Positions 1 to 30,098 of a stretch of DNA of 38,664 nt are shown here, in pieces. Position 1 is the stretch's first letter. Each line of letters starts with the position of its first letter. Made by a program: the position numbers and the translations under genes. Below the pieces are notes generated by a model. The model made no database searches and was not told the origin of the DNA. It saw nothing but the letters and a program-made list of their open reading frames with translations. The DNA comes from Actinomycetes bacterium (GTDB lineage Bacteria > Actinomycetota > Acidimicrobiia > Acidimicrobiales > Bog-793), in assembly GCA_021846125.1 (NCBI GenBank), contig JAJZCK010000003.1, forward strand, positions 1 through 38,664, in the 5' to 3' direction.

Positions 1-260
1 CCTCGTTGCCACGGGAACGAACGTCAAGACCGCGCAACGGCGTCTCGGGCACTCCTCTGCCTCAGTCACCCTCGACATCTACGCCCGGTCGACAAAGGCT
101 GCCGACCGGGAGGCTGCCGAACGGGTCGGGGCGTACCTTCGCCCGTCACTCGCGCACGCTGGACATCTAGTGGGATCGATGCTGGCCCGGCAACCGGCCC
201 TGACCTGCGCATTTGCCGTGGGCGCTGAGGGACTCGAACCCCCGACCTCAGCCGTGTGAA
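1..260. mobile_element. Probable boundary (att site) of an integrative element or prophage inserted at the tRNA-Val 3' end; the element lies left of the window
   Basis: An integrase gene abuts the tRNA 3' end, the classic layout of tRNA-targeting islands. The partner att repeat is not in the window. Confidence 0.65.
2..259 (+). CDS. Tyrosine recombinase/integrase, C-terminal fragment (5' end outside window)
   Basis: Frame 2 translates to LVATGTNVKTAQRRLGHSSASVTLDIYARSTKAADREAAERVG..., containing the LGH-x9-Y box II motif with the catalytic Tyr. The frame stays open to TGA at 257-259. It is absent from the ORF track because its start is outside the window. Confidence 0.85.
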   Translation, partial: LVATGTNVKTAQRRLGHSSASVTLDIYARSTKAADREAAERVGAYLRPSLAHAGHLVGSMLARQPALTCAFAVGAEGLEPPTSAV

Positions 261-292
261 GGCTGCGCTCTAACCACCTGAGCCAAGCGCCC
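219..292 (-). tRNA. tRNA-Val(CAC)
   Basis: The reverse complement folds as a cloverleaf: acceptor GGGCGCT/AGCGCCC plus A discriminator, D-arm GCTC/GAGC, anticodon arm CAGCC-TTCACAC-GGCTG, T-arm GGGGG-TTCGAGT-CCCTC. No encoded CCA. Confidence 0.96.
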
Positions 293-17070: not shown

Positions 17071-17874
17071 TCACCCGCCGGCCACAGTGCGGGACTCCTC
17101 GGACAAGGCTGCGAGCTCGTCGAGAAGAGCGACGGCGAACGATCCCGGACCGGGGCTCCCGCCGGCGGCACGCTCCCCGGCACGCGCGAGCACGGCAGAT
17201 GCGGCCGACGCTGCGAGAAGGACGTCGGCCTCGACGGCGGCGAACGCCGCGACGAGCGCGCCGAGCGCGCAGCCGACCCCCGTGACCCTCGTCATGAGCG
17301 GGCTCCCGCCCGGGACCGCGACGACGTCCGCGCCGTCGGTGACGTAGTCGACCGCGCCGCTCACGGCGACAACGCAGCCGGCGGCACGCGCGAGCGTGAG
17401 CGCCGCACCGAGAGCTTCGTCCGATCCTGCTTGCGAATCGACGCCCCGCCCGCCGGGACCGGCACCCGCGAGGCTCATGATCTCGGATGCGTTGCCTCGC
17501 ACCACCGACGGGCGCGCCGCGAGCAGCTCCCCGGCGAAGCGCGTCCGGTGGGCGAGGGCGCCGACGGCAACCGGGTCGAGGACCCACGGCCGTCCCGCCG
17601 CCGCCGCGCCCGTCGCCGCCGCGCGCATCGCGACCTCGCGCTCGGCCGAGAGGGTGCCGAGGTTGACGAGGACGGCACCGGCGGTCGCGGCGAACTCCCC
17701 GGACTCCTGCGAGTTCTCGACCATCGCCGGAGACGCGTCCACGGCGAGGAGCACGTTCGCCGTGAAGCCCGCCACGACGACGTTCGTCAGGCAGTGGACG
17801 AGGGGATGCCCCGCCCGCACCTCGGCCAAGAGCTCCGGCACACGACGATCGGTCCAGGTCAGCTCGGAGTGCAT
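17071..17874 (-). CDS. thiM: Hydroxyethylthiazole kinase
   Basis: PLVHCLTNVV, ASPAM, VNLGT, WVLDPVAVG, RGNASEI, GVDS, VTGVGC. Confidence 0.95.
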   Translation of the reverse strand: MHSELTWTDRRVPELLAEVRAGHPLVHCLTNVVVAGFTANVLLAVDASPAMVENSQESGEFAATAGAVLVNLGTLSAEREVAMRAAATGAAAAGRPWVLDPVAVGALAHRTRFAGELLAARPSVVRGNASEIMSLAGAGPGGRGVDSQAGSDEALGAALTLARAAGCVVAVSGAVDYVTDGADVVAVPGGSPLMTRVTGVGCALGALVAAFAAVEADVLLAASAASAVLARAGERAAGGSPGPGSFAVALLDELAALSEESRTVAGG

Positions 17875-17878
17875 GGGC

Positions 17879-17973
17879 GACGTCCCTCCGCTCGTACGAA
17901 CGAGATCAGGTTCGACAGGTCTCTCTCAGCCCGCGGGCGGTCCGGACGGACCACCGCGGGCACCCTGCGTCTC
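17879..17973 (-). ncRNA. TPP riboswitch (thi-box)
   Basis: Minus strand reads GACGCAGGGTGC...GCTGAGA...ACCTG.CGAACCTGATC....GT...AGCGGAGGGACGTC directly before the thiM ATG. The SD-like GGAGGG lies inside the aptamer 3' strand, which implies translational control. Confidence 0.93.
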
Positions 17974-17979
17974 CCCAGA

Positions 17980-18828: not shown

Positions 18829-21252
18829 ATGATCGCCGACGCGCTCGCCGGCAAGAGGATTGCCGTCACCGGGGCGACCGGCTTCCTCGGCACCGCTCTC
18901 GTCGAGCGCCTCCTGCGCAGCGTTCCAGGGTGCGAGGTCGTCCTGCTCGTGCGACCGGGTCGTCGGCTCGACGCAGCGGAGCGCACGGCACGCGAGATCT
19001 TGCGCAACGACTGCTTCGACCGGCTCCGGGCCGAGCTCGGCGACGGCTTCGCCGGCGAGGTCGCTCGCCGCGTCACCACGATCGCCGGCGACGTCGGGAC
19101 CGACGGCCTCGGCCTCGACGACCAAGCACGGGCCCTGCTCGCGAGCTGCGACGTGGTCGTCCACTCCGCGGCGACGGTCAGCTTCGACGCCCCGCTCGAC
19201 GGCGCCGTCGAGGTCAACCTGCTCGGTCCGAGCCGTGTGGCGGCCGCGATGCTCGACGCAGCGCGTGCCTACCGGCCCGCCGCTCGGCCACTCCCCCATC
19301 TCGTCGCCGTGTCGACCGCCTATGTGAACAGCGGTCACCACGGGGACGCCAGCGAGGAGCTCGTCACGCAGAGCCGCTACCTCGCTCTGCCGGACTGGCG
19401 CGGCGAGGTCGCTGCCGCGAGGCGCTCCCGCTCCGACGCCGACGCGGAGAGCCGGACGCCGGCAAGGCTCGCCGAGCTCCGCAAGGCCGCCCGGCGCGAG
19501 CTCGGCGCAGCGGGGACCGCTCTGCTTGCCGAGCGGACCGAGAAGCTACGCGGGGAGTGGGTGGACGACACGCTCGTCGAGCTCGGCCGGTCTCGCGCGC
19601 AAGCGCTCGGCTGGCCCGACGCCTACGCCTACACGAAGTCCCTCGGCGAGATGGCGCTCGGCGACAGCTGCGAGGACCTCCCCGTGTCGATCGTGCGCCC
19701 ATCGATCGTCGAGTCCGCCCTCGCGGAGCCGCGCCCGGGCTGGATCCGAGGCTTTCGCATGGCCGAGCCGGTCATCATCTCCTACGCCCGTGGCCTGCTC
19801 CGGCAGTTCCCCGGCGTCCCGGAGGGAGTCGTCGACGTCATACCGGTCGACCTCGTCGTCGCGGCCATCATCGCCGTCGCCGCGCACGGCCCGGAGGTCG
19901 CCGGCGGCGGTGACGGCTGCGATCCGGCCGTGTACCAGGTCGCGTCCGGCGTGCGGAACCCGTTCCGCTACGGCACCCTCGTCGACCTCTGCGAGCAGTG
20001 GTTCACCGAGCGACCCCTCTACGACGCCAAGGGCCAACCGATCGTCGTTCCCACCTGGTCCTTCCCCGGCCGTGGCAAGGTCCAGGGCGACCTGAGGCGC
20101 GCCGCGAAGGGCCTCCAGGCGATCGAGCGCATCGCGAGCATGCTGCCGGTACGCGGCGCGCTCGCCGAGAGGGTCAGCGCCGTCGAGGAGAAGCGGGACC
20201 TCGCGGAGCGTGCCCTCGGCTACGTCGAGCTCTACGGCGCCTACACCGAGACCGAGGCACGCTTTCGCGTCGACCGGACCCTCGCGCTTTACGACTCGCT
20301 CGACGACACCGACCGCACCGACTTCTGCTTCGACCCCGCTGTCGTCGACTGGGAGCACTACGTCACCGAGGTGCACCTGCCGTCGGTCGTCGCGCACGCT
20401 CGGGTCCGGACCTCGCCGGGCCGGCGTGTCACGGCGAGCAGGGAGGACCGGGCGCGGGCGGCGATCCTGTCGTCCGAGCCACGCTGCGCGGTGTTCGATC
20501 TCGAGCAGACCCTCGTGAGCTCGAACGTCGTCGAGTCGTACGCGTGGCTCGCGACACGTCACCTCGCCCCGCTCGCACGAGCACGGCTGGCGGTCCAGCT
20601 CGTCGCCGAGGGTCCTCGTCTCCTCGCGCTCGACCGCCGAGACCGCGGCGACTTCCTCCGCTCCTTCTACCGCCGCTACGAGGACGCCCCGGCCGAGCGG
20701 GTCCGTGACGACGCCTGGGAGCTGTTCGGCGACCTGATCCTCACCCGGTCGTTCCCCGACGGGTTGCAGCGGGTCCGCGACCACCGTGCGCTCGGCCACA
20801 AGACCCTGCTCATCACCGGTGCGCTCGACTTCGTCGTCGCGCCGCTCGCACCGCTGTTCGACGAGATCGTCTGCGCGCGCCTCGGCGAGCTCGACGGCAG
20901 GTTCACCGGTGAGATGGTCGCGACACCGCCGACCGGCGAGGCCCGCGCGCTTCTCATGGAGCGCTGGGCGGCATCGTTCGGGCTCGGCAAGGAGTCGACC
21001 GTCGCCTACGCGGACTCGACGAGCGACCTGCCGATGCTCGAGGCAGCCGGCCACCCGGTAGCGGTGAACCCCGAGCCGAAGCTCTCCGCTGTGGCACGCA
21101 AGCGCGGCTGGCCGGTCGAGCTCTGGCAGCAGACGCGTGGTGGACCGCGCCGGCCACTCGCCGTGTCGACCCGGCGGGTCGGCACGCGCACCCCGGCGCC
21201 GCGGGCGGCTGCCGCGGGCAACCCGGCACCGGAACGAGGACGGCTGTCGTGA
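18829..21252 (+). CDS. Fusion: fatty acyl-CoA reductase (male-sterility/NAD_binding_4) plus HAD-IB (SerB-like) hydrolase
   Basis: FAR half: TGATGFLG, HSAA, VSTAYV, YAYTK, RPSIV, DVIPVDLV. HAD half: FDLEQTL, LITGA, YADSTSDLPML, AVNP. Confidence 0.88.
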   Translation: MIADALAGKRIAVTGATGFLGTALVERLLRSVPGCEVVLLVRPGRRLDAAERTAREILRNDCFDRLRAELGDGFAGEVARRVTTIAGDVGTDGLGLDDQARALLASCDVVVHSAATVSFDAPLDGAVEVNLLGPSRVAAAMLDAARAYRPAARPLPHLVAVSTAYVNSGHHGDASEELVTQSRYLALPDWRGEVAAARRSRSDADAESRTPARLAELRKAARRELGAAGTALLAERTEKLRGEWVDDTLVELGRSRAQALGWPDAYAYTKSLGEMALGDSCEDLPVSIVRPSIVESALAEPRPGWIRGFRMAEPVIISYARGLLRQFPGVPEGVVDVIPVDLVVAAIIAVAAHGPEVAGGGDGCDPAVYQVASGVRNPFRYGTLVDLCEQWFTERPLYDAKGQPIVVPTWSFPGRGKVQGDLRRAAKGLQAIERIASMLPVRGALAERVSAVEEKRDLAERALGYVELYGAYTETEARFRVDRTLALYDSLDDTDRTDFCFDPAVVDWEHYVTEVHLPSVVAHARVRTSPGRRVTASREDRARAAILSSEPRCAVFDLEQTLVSSNVVESYAWLATRHLAPLARARLAVQLVAEGPRLLALDRRDRGDFLRSFYRRYEDAPAERVRDDAWELFGDLILTRSFPDGLQRVRDHRALGHKTLLITGALDFVVAPLAPLFDEIVCARLGELDGRFTGEMVATPPTGEARALLMERWAASFGLGKESTVAYADSTSDLPMLEAAGHPVAVNPEPKLSAVARKRGWPVELWQQTRGGPRRPLAVSTRRVGTRTPAPRAAAAGNPAPERGRLS

Positions 21253-22502
21253 GGGAGATCCTCGTCGAGCGGAGCCTTGCCCGCTTCGCCGCCGCGCGCG
21301 CCGCGTCGGTGGTCGCCGGCGCTGGCAGCGGCATCACCGTCGGGCCACTCCGCCTCGCCGACCGCGAGCCTCGGGCGCTGCCGGGCCCGGACTGGCATCG
21401 CGTCTCGCCCGTGCTCGCGGGGATCTGCGGCTCCGACCTCGCGACAGTCGACGGGGCGAGCTCGCGTTACTTCGAGTCGATCGTCAGCTTCCCCTTCGTC
21501 CTCGGGCACGAGATCGTCGGCACGGTCGGTGGCGGACGTCTCGCGGGCTCCCGGGTGGTCGTCGAGCCGGTGCTCGGCTGCGTCGCCCGCGCGATCGAGC
21601 CGCCGTGCCCGGCATGCGCGGCCGGCCGCAAGGGCGCTTGCGAGCGCATCGCCTTCGGCCACCTGAAGCCGGGCTTGCAGACGGGCTTCTGCGCGGACAC
21701 GGGCGGCGGCTGGTCGGACGGCCTCGTCGCGCACACGTCACAGCTGCACGCGGTGCCGGCGGAGCTGTCCGACGAGGCTGCGGTCATGGTCGAGCCGGCG
21801 GCGTGCGCGATCCACGCGGCACTTCTCGGCGCCGTCGTCCCGGGCGAGCGGGTCGTCGTGCTCGGCAGCGGCACGCTCGGTCTCGCCACCCTCGCCGCTC
21901 TGCGCCACTACGGCCAGCCTGCAGTCGTCGTCGCGGTCGCGAAGCACCCCGTCCAACGTGATCTCGCGGAGCAGCTCGGCGCCGACCAGGTCGTACGCCC
22001 CGAGGAGCTCGAGCGCGCCGTGCGGCGGCTCACGGGCTCCCTCGGCCTCGCGGGAGGAGGATCGCCGTCACGCCTCACCGGCGGCGCGGACGTCGTCTTC
22101 GACTGCGTCGGCTCGTCCTCGTCGATCGCCTCCTCGCTGGCGGTCGTCCGCCCCGGTGGGCGCGTCGTGCTCGTCGGGATGCCGGGCACGGTGCGGCTCG
22201 ACCTCGCGCCGCTCTGGCAGCGCGAGATCGCGCTCGTCGGTGCCTACGCCTACGGCACGGAGCAGACCCCAGACGGACCGAGGTCGACGTTCGACCTGGC
22301 GTTCGAGCTCGTCGCGGCTGCGCGCCTCGAGCGGCTCGTCTCGGCCCGCTACCCTCTCGAGCGCTACGAGGAAGCTGTGCGCCATGCTGCGAACGCAGGA
22401 CGGCGCGGCGCCGTGAAGGTCGTGTTCGCCATCGGCCGATCCTCCTCACCGGCCTGGCGGTCCGGGCCCCCGAACACCGAGAGCGTGGAGACGAACGCGT
22501 GA
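21249..22502 (+). CDS. Zn-dependent alcohol dehydrogenase (MDR family)
   Basis: GICGSD, GHE, C..PPCPAC..C, EPAA, GSGTLG; GTGA overlaps on both sides. Confidence 0.9.
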   Translation: MREILVERSLARFAAARAASVVAGAGSGITVGPLRLADREPRALPGPDWHRVSPVLAGICGSDLATVDGASSRYFESIVSFPFVLGHEIVGTVGGGRLAGSRVVVEPVLGCVARAIEPPCPACAAGRKGACERIAFGHLKPGLQTGFCADTGGGWSDGLVAHTSQLHAVPAELSDEAAVMVEPAACAIHAALLGAVVPGERVVVLGSGTLGLATLAALRHYGQPAVVVAVAKHPVQRDLAEQLGADQVVRPEELERAVRRLTGSLGLAGGGSPSRLTGGADVVFDCVGSSSSIASSLAVVRPGGRVVLVGMPGTVRLDLAPLWQREIALVGAYAYGTEQTPDGPRSTFDLAFELVAAARLERLVSARYPLERYEEAVRHAANAGRRGAVKVVFAIGRSSSPAWRSGPPNTESVETNA

Positions 22503-24088
22503 GTCCGAGACCTGGTTTCGTCCTCGAGGTGGACCGTTCGACACCACCGACGTTGTTCTGGCACGGCGAAGGGTGGCGGCTCGAGCGCCTTCCCGCCGGC
22601 AGTCGTGTCGTCTACCCGCCGGAGCCCCTCCCCGCTCTCGAGGACCCTGACGCTGCGATCCGCCACGCGCTGGAGCATCCCGCGGGCGACTCCTCGCCGC
22701 TCTCCGCGCTACTCCGTCCCGGCGCCAAGGTGACGATCGCGTTCGACGACGTCTCGCTGCCGCTTCCCCCCATGCGCGCTCCCGACGTGCGCCAGCGCGT
22801 CGTCGAGGCCGTGCTCGACGCGGCCGCAGGAGCGGGCGTCGACGACGTCGTGCTGATCGCCGCGCTCGCGCTCCACCGGCGGATGACAGACGCGGAGCTG
22901 CGCCACGCGCTCGGGTCCCGGGTGTTCGACGCGTTCGCCCCGCACGGCCTGCTCCTCCAGCACGACGCGGAGGACCCGGCCGGTGTCGTCCACCTCGGCC
23001 TCACGGACCACGGCGAGGACGTCGAGATCAACCGCCGCGCGGCCGAGAGCGACCTTCTCGTCTACGTCAACATCAATCTCGTCGCGATGGACGGCGGCCA
23101 CAAGTCGGTGGCGACGGGCCTGGCGAGCTACAAGAGCATCCGCCACCACCACAACGTCCGCACGATGCAGCAGAGCCGCTCGTTCATGGACCGCCACCAC
23201 AGCGAGCTCCACACGTCGAACTGGCGCATGGGCCGGCTCATCGCGAAGGCAGGTGTCAAGGTCTTCCAGATCGAGACCACCTTGAACCTCGACACCTTCC
23301 CGTCGCAGTTCTCCTTCCTGCAAAAGCGCGAGTGGGAGTGGTCTCTCCGGGACCGTGCTGCGTTCCACGCGACGAGCGCGGCGCTCGAGCGCACCCCGGC
23401 AGGGCTCAAGCGCCAGATCTTCCAGTCGATCCGCTCGCCACACGCGCTCACCTCGGTCCACGCTGGCGAGGTGGAAGCGGTCCACGAGCTCACGCTCGCA
23501 GACGTCCACCGCCAGCAGCTCGTACGCGTCGACGGCCAGGCCGACGTCCTCACGATGGGCCTTCCATACATCTGCCCGTACAACGTCAACTCGATCATGA
23601 ACCCGATCCTCGTCGCGTGCCTCGGGCTCGGGTACTTCTTCAACCTCTACCGGGGCAGGCCGCTCGTGCGCGAGGGGGGGGTGTGCATCATGTCGCACCC
23701 GACGCCGTGGGCGTTCAACCCAGTCCATCACCCGAGCTACATCGACTTCTTCGAGCAGGTGCTCGCCGAGACCGTCGACCCGCTCGAGATCGAGGCCAAG
23801 TACGAGGAGTCGTTCGCCACCGATCCGTGGTACGTCCACCTCTACCGCACCTCGAACGCCTACCACGGGGTGCACCCGTTCTACATGTGGTACTGGTGCG
23901 CGCACGCCCTCCAGCACCTCGGGCAGGTGATCGTCGTCGGCGGCGACAGGGCGGCCGTCCGCAGGCTCGGCTTCAAGCCCGCCTCGAGCCTCGCCGACGC
24001 GCTCGAGATGGCCGAGGACGTCGTCGGGCGCGACCCGAGCATCACCCACCTGCACAACCCACCGCTGTTCCTCGCCGACGTCACGTGA
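22499..24088 (+). CDS. Lactate racemase (LarA/DUF2088) domain protein
   Basis: IAFDDVSLP, ALALHRRMT, HDAED, INRRAAESDL, GGHKS follow the order of the LarA N-terminal motifs. Confidence 0.8.
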   Translation: MSPRPGFVLEVDRSTPPTLFWHGEGWRLERLPAGSRVVYPPEPLPALEDPDAAIRHALEHPAGDSSPLSALLRPGAKVTIAFDDVSLPLPPMRAPDVRQRVVEAVLDAAAGAGVDDVVLIAALALHRRMTDAELRHALGSRVFDAFAPHGLLLQHDAEDPAGVVHLGLTDHGEDVEINRRAAESDLLVYVNINLVAMDGGHKSVATGLASYKSIRHHHNVRTMQQSRSFMDRHHSELHTSNWRMGRLIAKAGVKVFQIETTLNLDTFPSQFSFLQKREWEWSLRDRAAFHATSAALERTPAGLKRQIFQSIRSPHALTSVHAGEVEAVHELTLADVHRQQLVRVDGQADVLTMGLPYICPYNVNSIMNPILVACLGLGYFFNLYRGRPLVREGGVCIMSHPTPWAFNPVHHPSYIDFFEQVLAETVDPLEIEAKYEESFATDPWYVHLYRTSNAYHGVHPFYMWYWCAHALQHLGQVIVVGGDRAAVRRLGFKPASSLADALEMAEDVVGRDPSITHLHNPPLFLADVT

Positions 24089-25074
24089 GCCCTGCACCCG
24101 AGCGTCCCGTCACCCGGGGACACTCCTCGCCCGTCGTCCGGCTGCCGCGCAAGATGCTCGGTGCGCTCGCTCCCCCGACCTGGCCGGGGACGGTCGAGCG
24201 GCCCCTGCCGCGCAGCCACGTCGGCACCGACTACGACACGAGCTGGTCCCGTACCCCCGTCGCGCGGCTCGCGCGGGCGATGATCACCGACAACATCACC
24301 CGGCCGTTCGTCCGCCTTGCCGCGGCGCCGACAGTCGTCGGTGCCGAGCACCTCGACCCGCTCCGCGGTCCCGTCATCTTCGCTGCGAACCACTCGAGCC
24401 ATCTCGACACCGCGATCGTGCTCAGCGCGCTCCCCGTGCGCTACCGCCACCACTGCGTGGTCGCGGCCGCGGCCGACTACTTCTTCGACCGGCGCTGGAA
24501 GGGCGACCTATGGTCGCTCGCCCTCGGCACGATCCCGATGGAGCGCTCCCGGGTGAACCGACGCAGCGTGGACCTCGCCGCCGAGCTCGTCGCAGACGGC
24601 TGGAGCGTGGTCATCTTTCCCGAAGGCGGGCGGACAACCGACGGCTGGGGCCAGGAGTTCCGCGGCTGGACCGCGTACCTCGCGAAGCGCTGCGGCGTGC
24701 CCGTCGTCCCGGTCCATCTCCACGGCGTGCGGCCGATCTTCCCGAAGGGCGGGAACCGCCTCCGGCCGGGCGAGGTCGAGGTCCGCTTCGGCGCTCCGCT
24801 CCGGCCGCTCACAGCCACCGCGACAGCCTCGGAAGGTGGGCACGGTCGCGAGGAGGACGCACGCCGTTTCGGCGCGCGCGTGGAGCAGAGCGTCGCCGCT
24901 CTCGCGGACGAGGCGGAGACGGACTGGTGGTCCGCTCGCCGGCGCGCGGCGCGAGGTGAGACACCCGACCTGCGGGGCCCTGACGCCGCAGCGTGGCGCC
25001 GGGCGTGGTTGCTCCCCGAGAGCCGGCGCTCGAACGCCGGTGTGCGCCGGCGCACCCCCTCCGCACCCTGGTGA
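24085..25074 (+). CDS. Lysophospholipid acyltransferase (PlsC family)
   Basis: NHSSHLD (HX4D), AAADYFF, FPEGGRT, VPVVPV. The GTG at 24085 overlaps the LarA-like stop. Confidence 0.9.
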   Translation: MSPAPERPVTRGHSSPVVRLPRKMLGALAPPTWPGTVERPLPRSHVGTDYDTSWSRTPVARLARAMITDNITRPFVRLAAAPTVVGAEHLDPLRGPVIFAANHSSHLDTAIVLSALPVRYRHHCVVAAAADYFFDRRWKGDLWSLALGTIPMERSRVNRRSVDLAAELVADGWSVVIFPEGGRTTDGWGQEFRGWTAYLAKRCGVPVVPVHLHGVRPIFPKGGNRLRPGEVEVRFGAPLRPLTATATASEGGHGREEDARRFGARVEQSVAALADEAETDWWSARRRAARGETPDLRGPDAAAWRRAWLLPESRRSNAGVRRRTPSAPW

Positions 25075-25162
25075 GGCTGCGCTGCAGCGCCCTGGTGACG
25101 CTGCGCCGGCCACGCGCGCGGACGACGACGAAGGCGACCAGCGCTGCACGTGCCCGGACGCG

Positions 25163-25247
25163 AAGAACGGGCCGGAGGGGGGATCCGGCCCGCTCTTACT
25201 AGACTCACCAGGAATCGGAGGGGGGGTCCGATGTGTTCCTGAGGTCT
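25163..25247 (-). ncRNA. 6C-like small RNA (two hairpins with C7 and C6 loops)
   Basis: Minus strand: ATCGGA-CCCCCCC-TCCGAT (stem extended by AGAC..CAGGA/TCCTG..GTCT), then AAGAGCGGGCCGGA-TCCCCCC-TCCGGCCCGTTCTT. A CATACT -10 candidate sits at 25254-25259. Confidence 0.75.
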
Positions 25248-25304
25248 GGGACCAGTATGCGCCCGGGCGAGCCATCGGTCAAACAGCTTCGGTAGATATC
25301 TGGT

Positions 25305-25319
25305 ATCGTTTGCAGCGAT
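25305..25319. promoter_or_regulatory. Putative LysR box ATC-N9-GAT (T-N11-A)
   Basis: ATCGTTTGCAGCGAT overlaps the LysR start and its TATCGT -10 candidate, about 60-70 bp upstream of the divergent sRNA start. Confidence 0.5.
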
Positions 25320-26301
25320 GGATCTCCGGCAGCTCAACGCTCTCGTCGCGATAGCGGAGCACGGATCGTTCTCTGCCGCCGCCGACGCGCTCGCGACGGT
25401 CCAGTCGAACGTCTCGACCCATGTGAAGAAGCTCGAGCGGGAGCTCGGCACGGTCCTCGTCGACCGGGCGACCGGCGAGCTCACCGAGGCGGGGGAGCTC
25501 GTCGTCAACCGTGCACGCCGGGTCATCGGCGAGCTCGACGCGATGACCTCGGACGTCACCGCGCTCAGTCACGAGGTGGTGGGGACGGTCCGCCTCGGCG
25601 CTATCGGAACGGCGGCGCGCTGGATCGTGCCGCTGCTGCTCGACGAGGTCCCCGGTCGCCACCCGATGCTCCATCTCGTCTTCGTCGAGGCCACCGGGCT
25701 CGGCCTCGACGCCCAGCTCGCGCTCGGCCAGGTCGACGTCGCGGTCATCGCGCTCCCTGCGTCTGGGAGCGAGGTGCGGACGATCCCGCTGTTCCGCGAA
25801 GATCTCGGCCTCGTCGTGCCCCGCGGCCACCCGCTCGACACCGGCGAGCCGGTCGACCCGGCCATCCTTCCAGAGCTGCCCCTCATGCTGCCGCTGCCGG
25901 GAAGCTCGTTCCGCGACGAGCTCGACGCAGTCGCTCGTGCGGCTGGTGTGGCGCTGCGGCCCCGCGCCGAGATGGACAGCCTGCGTCTCATCGCGACGCT
26001 CACCTTCGAGGGCTGCGGCTTCTCGATCCTGCCGGCCGGGGCGTTACCCTCCTTCCTCGAGGACTCGTGGGTGCTGCTTCCCGTCCGCGGGCTCCAGCCC
26101 CGGCTCGTCGGCGTTGCGCAGCGCCGGCGCGGCCTGCCTGGCGCGCCGGTGCGTGCCGTGCTCGACATCCTTGCCGAGGTCGTCATGGACGAGGACCGCA
26201 CGCCGCACGGCGTCTACCCCGTGGCGGGCTCCCGCCACATGAGCCAGAGCGGCGGACCACCACCGGGAGCGGCGACCTCTCCTGTCACGACGAAGCCGTG
26301 A
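25318..26301 (+). CDS. LysR-family transcriptional regulator
   Basis: MDLRQL..IAEHGSFSAAADAL..VQSNVSTHVKKLERELG..L.DR..LTEAG. Confidence 0.95.
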   Translation: MDLRQLNALVAIAEHGSFSAAADALATVQSNVSTHVKKLERELGTVLVDRATGELTEAGELVVNRARRVIGELDAMTSDVTALSHEVVGTVRLGAIGTAARWIVPLLLDEVPGRHPMLHLVFVEATGLGLDAQLALGQVDVAVIALPASGSEVRTIPLFREDLGLVVPRGHPLDTGEPVDPAILPELPLMLPLPGSSFRDELDAVARAAGVALRPRAEMDSLRLIATLTFEGCGFSILPAGALPSFLEDSWVLLPVRGLQPRLVGVAQRRRGLPGAPVRAVLDILAEVVMDEDRTPHGVYPVAGSRHMSQSGGPPPGAATSPVTTKP

Positions 26302-27561: not shown

Positions 27562-28605
27562 TCAGCTGTCGAGAGAGATCGGCTCGTCGTCCCGCGTCCC
27601 CGAGCCGAGAGCCACCTCCACCGGAACCGCAGCACCTGCCTGGCGGATTCGCTCGTCGAGCTCGACCACGAGCTCGGGGCTGTCCCGCAAGAACTGCTTC
27701 GCGTTCTCACGCCCCTGGCCGAGCTGCTCGCCTTCGTAGGTGTACCAGGCTCCCGACTTCTTCACGATCGCGAGGTCGACCGCGACGTCGAGGATCGAGC
27801 CCTCGCGACTGATCCCCTTGCCGTACATGATGTCGAACTCCGCCGTGCGGAACGGCGGGGCACACTTGTTCTTCACAACCTTCACCCGTGTCCGGTTGCC
27901 GACCATCTCGGAGCCGTCCTTGATCGACTCGACCCTACGGATGTCGAGGCGCACGGACGAGTAGAACTTGAGCGCACGGCCGCCAGGAGTGACCTCCGGA
28001 GAGCCGTAGATGACACCGATCTTCTCCCGCAGCTGATTGATGAAGAGTGCGATCGTCTTCGACTTGCTCAGCGTACCGGTGATCTTGCGCAGAGCCTGCG
28101 ACATAAGGCGGGCCTGGAGCCCGACGTGGCTATCGCCCATGTCGCCTTCGATCTCGGCGCGCGGCGTCAGCGCAGCGACGGAGTCGATGACGATGACGTC
28201 GATCGCTCCCGAGCGGATCAGCATGTCGGCGATCTCGAGCGCCTGCTCACCGGTGTCGGGCTGGGAGATCAACAGCTCGTCGATGTCGACCCCGATCGCC
28301 GACGCATAGACGGGGTCCATCGCGTGCTCGGCGTCGATGTACGCCGCGACCCCGCCGTTGCGCTGGGCCTCCGCGACGACGTGCAGTGCGAGCGTCGACT
28401 TTCCCGACGACTCGGGTCCGTAGAGCTCGACGATCCGACCGCGGGGAAGGCCACCGACGCCGAGAGCGAGATCGAGCGACATCGCACCCGTGGAGATCGC
28501 CTCGATCCCCATCGTGAGGCTCTCCCCCATCCGCATGACAGAGCCCTTGCCGAACTGCTTCTCGATCTGGCCGAGCGCCGCCTCGAGTGCCTTGTCCCGC
28601 TCCAT
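27562..28605 (-). CDS. recA: Recombinase A
   Basis: [62 protein letters not shown]. Confidence 0.99.
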
Positions 28606-28764
28606 GTCTCTCCCTCTCCTCGCGGACCGGGCCGCTCCGGCGGCTCCGTGGCCGATCTCCACCTTGACGAGCGCACCCTACGAGGGTGCTGTATCAGCCG
28701 GTTCCCGTCACCGTCGGCCCGGGTGCCCGTCGGCCGGCCCGGCCGACTTGCACGACTGTAGTTC

Positions 28765-28850: not shown

Positions 28851-30098
28851 TCAGGTCTCGGCGAGGAGGCGGCGGCGGAGCTCGTCGAGGGTGGAGATGG
28901 TGCCGATCTGGCGGATCCGCTCGCGGGAGCCGGAGAGCCGGAGAGCCACCGCGTCCGGCGGCGATCCGGGTAGCGCTATGCCGGCGAAGCCGGTGCCCGG
29001 CGGCAGCCCTTCCTGCGCGTCGGGCCCGGCAACCCCCGTCGTCGCGACGCCGACGTCCGCACCGAGCAGGCGCCGGACGCCCTCGGCCATCGCGGCGGCT
29101 GCGTCCGGCGTGACGACCGGTCCCTCGGGGACGGCGAGGACGGCGTGCTTCACCTCGCTCGCATACGCGACGACGGCCCCACGGAACCACAAGCTCGCAC
29201 CCGGTAGGGCAACGATACGAGACGCGATGAGGCCGCCGGTGAACGACTCGGCGACGGCGAGCGTCCGGCCACGCGCGACGAGCAGCGCCCCGACGGCGTG
29301 CTCCATCGTCTCGTCGTCCACGCCAAACACCACCTCGCCGACGAGGGCACGGATCTCCGCCTCCTCGGCGTCGAGGGCGGACTCGGCTCTCGCCAGGCTC
29401 GGCGCCTTCACCGTCAACCGGAGCTTGATCCCCTCGATCCCGCTCGCGAGGAACGCGATCGTCGGTGCGCCCGGTCCGGCGGCGTCGAGCGCGTCGAGAC
29501 GGGGCGCGACGATCTCGGCAAGCCCCGACTCACTCGTCCCCCAGGTCCGCAGCGTCCTGCTGACGATGACCGCCTGCTCGCCGGCCCGGGAGAGAAGGTC
29601 CGGCAGCACTGCCCGCTCGACCATCTCCCGCAGCTCGTCGGGCACCCCGGGAAGCGCGTAGACGACCTTCTCCCCGACCGGGCAGACGAGCCCGGGCGCA
29701 GTCCCGATCCGCTGCTCGATCGGTACGGCACCGACAGGAAGGTCCGCCTGCTTCGCGTTGATCGCAGCCATCTGCCGACCGCGAGCGGCGAACACCGCCT
29801 CGACAGCTGCGAGCAGTCCGGGGTCACGCCGGATCGGGACGCCCATGACCGCGGCGATCGCCTCACGCGTGATGTCGTCCTGGGTCGGGCCCAGGCCACC
29901 GCAGACCACCACCGCATCCGATCGCCCGAGAGCGACCTGCAGCGCCTCGACGATGCGCTCCAGGTTGTCGCCCACCCGGGTCTGGAACAGGCAGTCGATC
30001 CCCGCGCTCGCCAGCTGCTCCGCGATCCAGGTCGAGTTCGTGTCGACGATCTGGCCGAGGAGCAGCTCGGTCCCGACGGCGACGATCTCCGCGCGCAC
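28851..30098 (-). CDS. cinA: Competence/damage-inducible protein CinA (MoCF domain plus PncC domain)
   Basis: VGTELLLGQIVDTNS, GGLGPTQDDIT, GTAPG, LPGVP, AESFTGG, TTGVAGP; directly upstream of recA. Confidence 0.95.
   Translation of the reverse strand: MRAEIVAVGTELLLGQIVDTNSTWIAEQLASAGIDCLFQTRVGDNLERIVEALQVALGRSDAVVVCGGLGPTQDDITREAIAAVMGVPIRRDPGLLAAVEAVFAARGRQMAAINAKQADLPVGAVPIEQRIGTAPGLVCPVGEKVVYALPGVPDELREMVERAVLPDLLSRAGEQAVIVSRTLRTWGTSESGLAEIVAPRLDALDAAGPGAPTIAFLASGIEGIKLRLTVKAPSLARAESALDAEEAEIRALVGEVVFGVDDETMEHAVGALLVARGRTLAVAESFTGGLIASRIVALPGASLWFRGAVVAYASEVKHAVLAVPEGPVVTPDAAAAMAEGVRRLLGADVGVATTGVAGPDAQEGLPPGTGFAGIALPGSPPDAVALRLSGSRERIRQIGTISTLDELRRRLLAET

Follow-up and report, generated by a model that had tools for sequence, protein, structure and literature searches.

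On contig JAJZCK010000003.1 of an Acidimicrobiales genome (assembly GCA_021846125.1; 2.83 Mb in 304 contigs, 95% complete), two adjacent minus-strand hairpins with C-rich loops lie back to back with a gene for a LysR-type transcriptional regulator (LTTR); the whole stretch analysed, 38,664 nucleotides (nt) long, is called the window below. With moderate confidence, we propose that the hairpins constitute a stand-alone gene for a trans-acting small RNA (sRNA) of about 88 nt, which would represent an sRNA family extending across the order Acidimicrobiales (class Acidimicrobiia), be controlled by LysR and pair with ribosome-binding sites (RBSs) through its C loops. The sequence features, the structure and its covariation, the conserved promoter, the linkage to lysR and the independence from the 3' neighbour were computed here. 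A first-pass annotation, made from the letters of the sequence, had read the locus as a LysR-activated anti-RBS sRNA, and this reading is supported by our analysis; activation by LysR and action on RBSs are the parts of it that we infer.

Structure and promoter of the predicted RNA

The predicted transcript occupies 25160..25247 on the minus strand (about 88 nt), with its 5' end placed from the -10 box and its 3' end from the terminator hairpin. Two minus-strand hairpins with loops of seven and six C, each followed by TCC, had been described before and were read again at the same positions. In the minimum free energy (MFE) structure, hairpin 1 (25201..25247) has an outer stem, AGACCUCAGGA/UCCUGGUGAGUCU, and an inner stem, AUCGGA/UCCGAU, and its loop carries C7 (25226-25220) and then UCC. 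Hairpin 2 (25163..25197), a putative intrinsic terminator, has a stem of 13 base pairs (bp), AAGAGCGGGCCGG/CCGGCCCGUUCUU, and the loop AUCCCCCCU, in which C6 (25182-25177) is again followed by UCC. A conserved CGCG (25162-25159) comes directly after hairpin 2, and the sequence downstream of it is variable among relatives. The folding energy is -52.4 kcal/mol on the minus strand (z = -3.58), a value matched by none of 200 shuffles, versus z = -1.30 and 17 of 200 shuffles for the plus strand.

The hexamer CATACT, which had been proposed as a -10 element 6 nt upstream of the hairpins, is present at 25259-25254, with 6 nt between it and the first stem. To this we add a -35 element, TTGACC (25282-25277), that was absent from the first-pass annotation and is separated from the -10 by a spacer of 17 nt. 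The combination TTGACC-N17-CATACT was the sole sigma-70-like site returned by a generic promoter scan of 24700-25700, and none arose in 50 shuffles; with 9 of 12 matches and a 17-nt spacer, it is near the housekeeping consensus.

Conservation and covariation

When 171 nt of the intergenic region were searched as DNA against 40 relatives, 18 of the family's 24 other genomes yielded alignments of at least 90 nt, with identities of 68-98%. Hairpin 2 alone first revealed two further full copies, in G020, of the same family, and in G036, of another. The conserved blocks of the alignments are the lysR start, two dyads described below, the -35 and -10 elements and both C loops.

Analysis of covariation, a check suggested with the original proposal, came out in favour of the structure, as both stems covary among relatives. 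The cleaner test used a MAFFT alignment (A1) of 20 of the 22 sequences, which was unfitted to structure and was scored against a hand-written structure; A1 omits L002 (98% identity to the window) and L021, of which hairpin 2 alone aligns. In A1, 86.8% of cells were paired and 18 of the 28 pairs had double changes, values that none of 500 shuffles reached, while slid controls gave 38-53% pairing. A covariance model built from A1 (R1) found one convincing copy in the source genome, at 25156-25250 on the minus strand (100.4 bits), the next match having 20.9 bits (E = 0.7). The model-fitted alignment, which holds 65 matches (54 distinct) and leans towards the structure, gave 91.2% pairing and double changes in 25 of the 28 pairs, again with 0 of 500 shuffles reaching these values. 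Within it, changes on both sides occurred in 10 of 10 outer-stem and 4 of 5 inner-stem pairs of hairpin 1. For hairpin 2, 96.9% of cells were paired in the unfitted and 99.3% in the fitted alignment, with double changes in 11 of its 13 pairs.

G-U or U-G wobble pairs account for 74 cells (the sum of per-pair counts in the fitted alignment). These would be A-C mismatches on the other strand, which indicates that selection acts on the minus-strand RNA. Among 42 family-level relatives the C runs are 5-8 long, with at least six C in 41 of the 42 for loop 1 and likewise in 41 of 42 for loop 2. A reading of the element as a small open reading frame (ORF) was rejected because loop and spacer lengths differ by 1-2 nt among relatives.

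Linkage to lysR and a phased operator

The divergent gene, lysR (25318..26301, plus strand), encodes an LTTR of 327 amino acids with the Pfam domains HTH_1 (E = 2e-18) and LysR_substrate (E = 1.3e-36). A putative LysR operator at 25295..25319, to which no strand is assigned, comprises two overlapping dyads. The first, ATC-N9-GAT (25319-25305), overlaps the lysR ATG and is centred at -65 from the predicted sRNA start, A25247; the second, GATA-N5-TATC (25307-25295), is centred at -54. An ATC-N9-GAT box at the lysR start, some 60-70 bp upstream of the RNA, was already part of the first-pass annotation, and comparison between genomes adds that it tracks the sRNA promoter and not the lysR ATG. Since its start codon (25318-25320) lies inside the operator, the lysR mRNA is probably leaderless or nearly so. 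A profile of guanine-plus-cytosine (GC) content by codon position revealed no minus-strand protein gene between lysR and the neighbouring acyltransferase gene, which is convergent with the RNA; with no divergent protein gene in the region, LysR is, as had been claimed, without a divergent protein partner in the source genome.

Linkage to lysR was tested INDEPENDENTLY, with loci fetched through the LysR protein and not through the RNA. The protein search returned 45 Acidimicrobiales loci and one weak gammaproteobacterial match. R1 detected the RNA in 43 of these 45 loci, divergent from lysR, at 72-98 bits as against 15-25 bits on the other strand, with the match ending about 68 nt before the lysR ATG. 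In the remaining two loci (L044, L045), whose RNAs were placed on the same contigs as lysR by coordinates, an altronate-dehydratase-like gene has been inserted between the two and the RNA is found about 2.4 kb upstream; this separated RNA keeps its promoter and the inner dyad, as GATG-N5-CATC. The expectation that the C loops would be kept beside lysR orthologues was therefore borne out, directly in 43 of 45 family-level loci and at 2.4 kb in the other two, and also in 28 of 29 loci at the level of the order. The inserted gene is altronate/galactarate-dehydratase-like (GD_AH) and divergent from lysR (two genomes; L044, L045, L014/L108, L109), and in the genomes with this insertion the sRNA keeps a perfect 19-bp palindrome, TTAGATGG-N3-CCATCTAA.

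The promoter is as constant as the pairing of the genes. TTGAC was present in 42 of the 43 loci, the 43rd having Ns there, and its distance from the lysR ATG was 35 nt in 40 of the 42 (the other two are regular-expression artefacts), without indels between ATG and -35 box across the family-level loci. A -10 of the form [TC]ANNNT followed at a spacing of 17-18 nt in 40 of 42 loci; the ATC-N9-GAT dyad was found in all 42 and the second dyad in 41. Two contigs of one metagenome-assembled genome (L032, L040) each carry a lysR-sRNA pair, with LysR identities to the query of 87-88%, which may reflect either a true duplication or two strains binned together.

Spread across the order

In a class-wide sample of 150 genomes, R1 gave 21 matches at E <= 0.01. 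Besides the window's own match, seven of these show two C loops and the others are terminators; R1 is too narrow for distant relatives. A divergent lysR orthologue (43-52% identity) accompanies five of the seven two-C-loop RNAs. The lysR orthologue itself occurs in 33 of 35 genomes of the same order (E <= 1e-62, 41-54% identity), and other orders of the class have weaker LysR matches (36-42% identity). The module is present in several genomes of the sample that are complete as a single contig. Outside Acidimicrobiia, R1 had matches in 17 genomes, which were terminator-like hairpins only, with no two-C-loop RNA among those read (the locus of G234 was left out of this reading).

We therefore turned to 29 lysR loci fetched across the order (L128-L156). 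At least two runs of at least five C lay within 260 nt upstream on the opposite strand in 28 of them, as compared with 297 of 5710 control windows from the same loci (5.2%). In MFE folds, 23 of the 29 had at least two C runs in hairpin loops and 15 had three; the loops are often C5 only. Judged from these folds, the three-hairpin RNA, with a predicted length of about 130 nt, is the commonest form in the order, and the window's family has a two-hairpin version.

The operator is conserved at this depth as well, ATC-N9-GAT occurring at all 29 loci and the second dyad at 24. The box is separated from the TTGnnn hexamer of the sRNA promoter by 11-12 nt in 23 of 24 loci (the one exception is a regular-expression artefact), whereas between box and lysR ATG the offset varies from 4 to 45 nt; nine loci have a lysR that begins 7-45 nt more distant from the box, and in them the spacing between box and TTGnnn is unchanged. 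A fixed spacing between box and promoter despite the varying distance of the lysR ATG suggests that the operator serves the sRNA promoter and not lysR autoregulation alone. In our view this phasing, a property of the sequence, is the best available argument for control of the sRNA by LysR, to which it points.

Proposed mechanism and its alternatives

How such a module would work, from transcription through LysR binding and its sign to base pairing and targets, we infer as follows. The housekeeping-type promoter TTGACC-N17-CATACT would drive a transcript from the foot of hairpin 1 to the terminator of hairpin 2. LysR would bind the combined operator, ATC-N9-GAT(A)-N5-TATC, centred some 54-65 nt before the start of the sRNA, and control transcription of the sRNA, most likely by activating it upon binding of a co-inducer; because the operator overlaps the lysR start codon, LysR would also repress its own gene. 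The exposed C7 and C6 loops, running into UCC, would mimic an extended anti-Shine-Dalgarno (anti-SD) sequence and pair with GGAGGGG-like ribosome-binding regions, lowering the translation or stability of targets in the way of the mycobacterial 6C RNA. By analogy, the loops should mask G-rich ribosome-binding sites. The LarA_N-like gene in the convergent operon contains, at 23674-23681 (plus strand), a run of eight G (GAGGGGGGGGU) with 9 nt of complementarity to loop 1; we set this run aside as a target, since the chance of such a run per operon of this size is about 3% (30 G/C runs of at least 8 in the genome).

Several observations weigh against this proposal. The start, the end and the expression of the sRNA are predictions. 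The U tract of hairpin 2 is short, interrupted (UUCUU) and itself paired with AAGAG, and because it is short a scan for canonical terminators (a GC-rich stem and at least 5 U within 8 nt) called none in 24700-25700; the -10 hexamer CATACT starts with C, not T. Over 24600-26000, the contigs of three metatranscriptome runs provided no cover and are uninformative on expression, and one run of unknown kind contained only a relative of 90-95% similarity. A crude count of the motif GGAGGGGG gave 114 sites in the genome, of which only 13 precede a plausible start codon, several of these 13 being clearly internal to genes, and identified no target. LysR could be given no subfamily or ligand, as no NCBIfam equivalog cut-off was reached (CynR, 117 bits against a cut-off of 277; OxyR, 111.8 against 329; GcvA, 55 against 288). 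Genome G182, which is from the same order and 97% complete, carries the RNA (L080, upstream of murT) and no lysR orthologue at E <= 1e-40, and G078 has a second two-C-loop RNA (L092) away from any lysR. Finally, adjacency of the two genes would also be expected if the operator served lysR autoregulation alone.

This last point leads to the alternative that survives best, although we think it unlikely: that the sRNA is real and LysR is not its controller, the operator serving only lysR autoregulation and the sRNA being constitutive or otherwise driven, like 6C of Corynebacterium glutamicum. A promoter so near to consensus can often do without an activator, that of 6C in C. glutamicum is described as strong and SigA/SigB-dependent (PMC5014011), and one genome, G182, has the RNA without a detectable lysR orthologue. 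Against it stand a dyad that stays 11-12 nt from the -35 element even in loci whose lysR begins 17-45 nt further off, a promoter and inner dyad that persist when another gene intervenes between lysR and the sRNA, and linkage at all 45 family-level loci and at 28 of the 29 order-level ones.

A second possibility, which we consider improbable, is that the RNA pairs with no mRNA and instead binds or titrates a protein through its C loops (a poly(C)- or KH-type protein), or the ribosome. RNAs across the order contain 2 to 3 near-identical C-loop modules, as is typical of sponge-like RNAs, and no convincing mRNA target emerged from the motif count. Set against this, the closest studied design, 6C/B11, is described as pairing with G-rich regions of mRNAs through its C-rich loops without a chaperone (PMC6486639), and the run of each loop into UCC creates CCCUCC, the anti-SD core. 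Regulation by base pairing under LysR control remains the reading that we prefer.

Independence from the 3' neighbour

The gene beyond hairpin 2 in the window lies outside the module and is an acyltransferase gene (Pfam PF01553; 24085..25074, plus strand, convergent), the last of a lipid operon; its start is approximate and is marked by a switch in codon-position GC near 24070-24090. Typing of the 3' neighbour by Pfam in 27 of the 45 loci identified 7 convergent acyltransferases, 8 co-directional TauE/SafE genes, 9 co-directional fusions of HAD (PF12710) and acyltransferase, or truncated parts of such fusions, and, at 2 loci, the inserted dehydratase; the last locus had no Pfam result, its chosen ORF being an artefact of the antisense strand. 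A tblastn search located a convergent acyltransferase of the window's type in 12 loci. The co-directional genes begin 60-260 nt past hairpin 2 (HAD-acyltransferase genes at 60-90 nt, TauE genes at 130-260 nt) and have a conserved TANNNT box of their own, followed by a leaderless-type GTG or ATG. Among more distant members of the class, murT, a GntR gene or a member of the fumarylacetoacetase family takes this place. What stays constant is the pairing with lysR, and what varies is the downstream gene. A 3' neighbour that varies and has its own promoter argues for a stand-alone sRNA gene, neither a leader nor a mere terminator of the lipid operon. Upstream of TauE genes (L047, L050, L053, L058, L065) we also noticed a conserved palindrome-like sequence of the GTTGTCCG-N-...ACAAC type with a TAGNGT box; this palindrome before leaderless TauE/SafE genes is probably the operator of another regulator.

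These data bear on the two remaining alternatives. We regard it as very improbable that the RNA is a cis-acting 5' leader or attenuator of the downstream gene, which would then be the classical divergent target of LysR. Many relatives do have a co-directional gene at the distances given above, but the next gene is convergent in the window and 12 close relatives, downstream genes come from at least four unrelated families and the co-directional ones have their own -10 box and leaderless start; moreover, no conserved anti-terminator pairing is evident and hairpin 2 is paired in 97-99% of cells. It is scarcely credible that the hairpins amount to no more than a terminator, perhaps bidirectional, for the convergent lipid operon, as the first-pass annotation had allowed, or palindromic DNA without an RNA of its own: hairpin 2 does sit 89 nt past the acyltransferase stop, with a symmetric AAGAG...CUCUU that could end plus-strand transcription, but the RNA is kept beside co-directional TauE or HAD-acyltransferase genes, hairpin 1, the C loops and the promoter persist where there is no convergent gene, and the G-U pairs, the fold z-scores and the R1 scores of the two strands all favour the minus strand. 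Hairpin 2 may nevertheless also terminate the acyltransferase gene from the other side.

Genomic surroundings

Elsewhere in the window, Rfam matches above threshold were confined to a thiamine pyrophosphate (TPP) riboswitch at 17866-17977 (minus strand, 59.4 bits) and a transfer RNA at 219-292 (minus strand, 66.4 bits). The acyltransferase gene closes a four-gene operon (18829-25074, plus strand) that also encodes a fusion of fatty-acyl reductase (NAD_binding_4/Sterile) and HAD-IB, a zinc alcohol dehydrogenase and the LarA_N-like protein, and that possibly specifies a wax-ester or unusual lipid pathway. Downstream of lysR lies a DsbA-like thioredoxin-fold gene (PF01323; 26922-27542, plus strand), in whose product a monothiol CPFA replaces CxxC; such a gene follows lysR in 39 of the 45 loci. 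In many loci a conserved GGAAT-N~18-GTT element stands a few bases before the DsbA-like start codon, which we take to resemble a SigR/SigH-type thiol-stress promoter driving a leaderless mRNA. Lipid/acyl metabolism and thiol stress are thus the themes among the neighbours, and they hint only loosely at what LysR may sense. The genes recA and cinA follow about 1.3 kb beyond lysR (27562-28662 and 28851-30098, both minus strand), and recA is at the edge of the loci of three relatives. Given that 6C of C. glutamicum has been linked to the SOS response (PMC5014011), their proximity to the sRNA attracts attention; it may be a coincidence.

Comparison with known regulatory RNAs

The 6C type ranks with the best-conserved small RNAs known in Actinomycetota. 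6C RNAs are defined by two hairpins whose loops each contain a run of at least six C and are described as widespread in Actinobacteria, near chromosome-partitioning or pilus genes (PMC1950547); a second account gives the same definition and a length of ~80 nt (PMC5014011). The element in the window shares with 6C (RF01066; B11 in mycobacteria, cgb_03605 in C. glutamicum) the phylum Actinomycetota, a length of ~80-90 nt, two C-run hairpins (C7 and C6 in the window) of which the second ends the transcript, and covarying stems. Its earlier description as 6C-like accordingly holds for the architecture of two C-loop hairpins, and fails for the Rfam model, which stays below threshold, and for the synteny of 6C, which is absent. 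The Rfam check itself was negative: RF01066 gave no match on the window at the gathering score (47 bits), none at E <= 10 on 24950-25450, and none in the source genome or in the approximately 10 Acidimicrobiia genomes of a phylum sample, in which this narrow model detects 6C in 8 of 151 genomes. On the loci of 18 relatives one RNA scores (L081), at 34.8 bits versus the threshold of 47. The same RNA scores 32.4 bits with ar14 and 31.3 with ar7, both alphaproteobacterial, and the similarity of the three scores suggests that these models respond to a generic design. R1, applied to genuine 6C, found the right place in 6 of 7 loci, at 16-19 bits only.

Genomic context separates the two RNAs further. 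At all 7 genuine 6C loci a HAD-IB gene (PF12710) is divergent from the RNA; a ParA/Ssd-like gene lies on the downstream side (CbiA in 2 of the 7) and there is no LysR, whereas the partners in the window are a divergent LysR and a convergent acyltransferase; order-level relatives, moreover, often have three C-loop hairpins, unlike the two of 6C. A PF12710 HAD-IB gene adjoins both genuine 6C (L099-L105) and the acidimicrobial RNA (L046, L059, L060, L069-L074, L081, L015), in differing orientations. Shared synteny through HAD-IB was discounted as an argument for orthology, the two HADs being paralogues (32-35% identity). An orthologue of the 6C-linked HAD (44-52% identity) is located elsewhere in the genome, with no C-loop RNA beside it.

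Other RNAs resemble the element in parts. The best sub-threshold Rfam matches on the window were ar14 (22 bits; gathering score 58.8) and CcsR1 (18.4 bits; gathering score 65.3), and the weak matches to ar14, CcsR1, ar7 and PtaRNA1 were all rejected as generic matches between hairpins with C-rich loops. With the ar14/CcsR1-4 'cuckoo' RNAs (RF02344, RF02791), the element shares modularity, a variable number of hairpins and C-rich anti-SD-like loops; those RNAs belong to another phylum and have the loop motif CCUCCUCCC, whereas the loops of the present family are plain C6-C8 runs. CcsR RNAs are described as co-transcribed with a DUF1127 gene under RpoH-type control, and not as LTTR-paired (PMC8034643).

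The arrangement of the genes has its closest parallels in LTTR-controlled sRNAs. In OxyR/OxyS and GcvA/GcvB of enterobacteria the LTTR gene is divergent from the sRNA that it activates. The locus in the window has the same back-to-back layout of an LTTR gene and an sRNA gene with a shared operator-bearing intergenic region, in which a T-N11-A-type dyad is centred at -65 from the predicted start, within the 55-80 nt typical of this layout and comparable with the dyad near -65 in the enterobacterial systems. It differs in that the RNA sequence is unrelated, control by LysR is predicted here and the protein is an orthologue of neither OxyR nor GcvA; OxyR was rejected on its score (111.8 versus 329 bits) and because LysR contains a single Cys, not two redox cysteines. 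We know of no Hfq in this lineage. VtlR (LsrB)/AbcR1 of Rhizobiales offers another LTTR-driven sRNA, as proposed here. The vtlR and abcR1 genes are adjacent, and AbcR1 acts through short C/U-rich anti-SD-like loop motifs. The phylum, the RNA fold and the targets, which are ABC transporter mRNAs, set that pair apart, and VtlR is reported to bind and activate the abcR1 promoter directly, at a different box, GCAT-N3-TG-N3-T (PMC7486931).

A search of full-text literature outside subscription journals returned no relevant paper on 6C RNA together with LysR, or, for Acidimicrobiia, on small RNA together with LysR, on 6C RNA or on anti-Shine-Dalgarno sRNA; in the one match, for 6C with LysR, 'LysR' stood for lysyl-tRNA synthetase. 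To our knowledge no riboregulation has been described in this class, an abundant and mostly uncultured lineage of soil and water. We are evenly divided on the wider proposition that a ligand-sensing LysR switches on an anti-SD-mimic sRNA of 2-3 hairpins in essentially all Acidimicrobiales, as a hard-wired module whose RNA is either a diverged branch of 6C with a changed partner or an independent invention. If true, no earlier RNA of the 6C type would have had a dedicated transcription factor genetically coupled to it, and the pair would give a handle on the input signal; LysR coupling and the phased operator would make the control and the targets of 6C-like RNAs experimentally addressable. Our results also show that the Rfam 6C model misses a large sister group of the same design, whose members differ in their count of C-loop modules. 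Conceptually, an sRNA of the C-loop 6C type governed by a divergent LTTR is no surprise, and as an order-wide module it is clean and testable. In comparison with all of these systems, we read the element as a distinct Acidimicrobiales family of C-loop sRNAs, with two to three hairpins, that is 6C-like in design.

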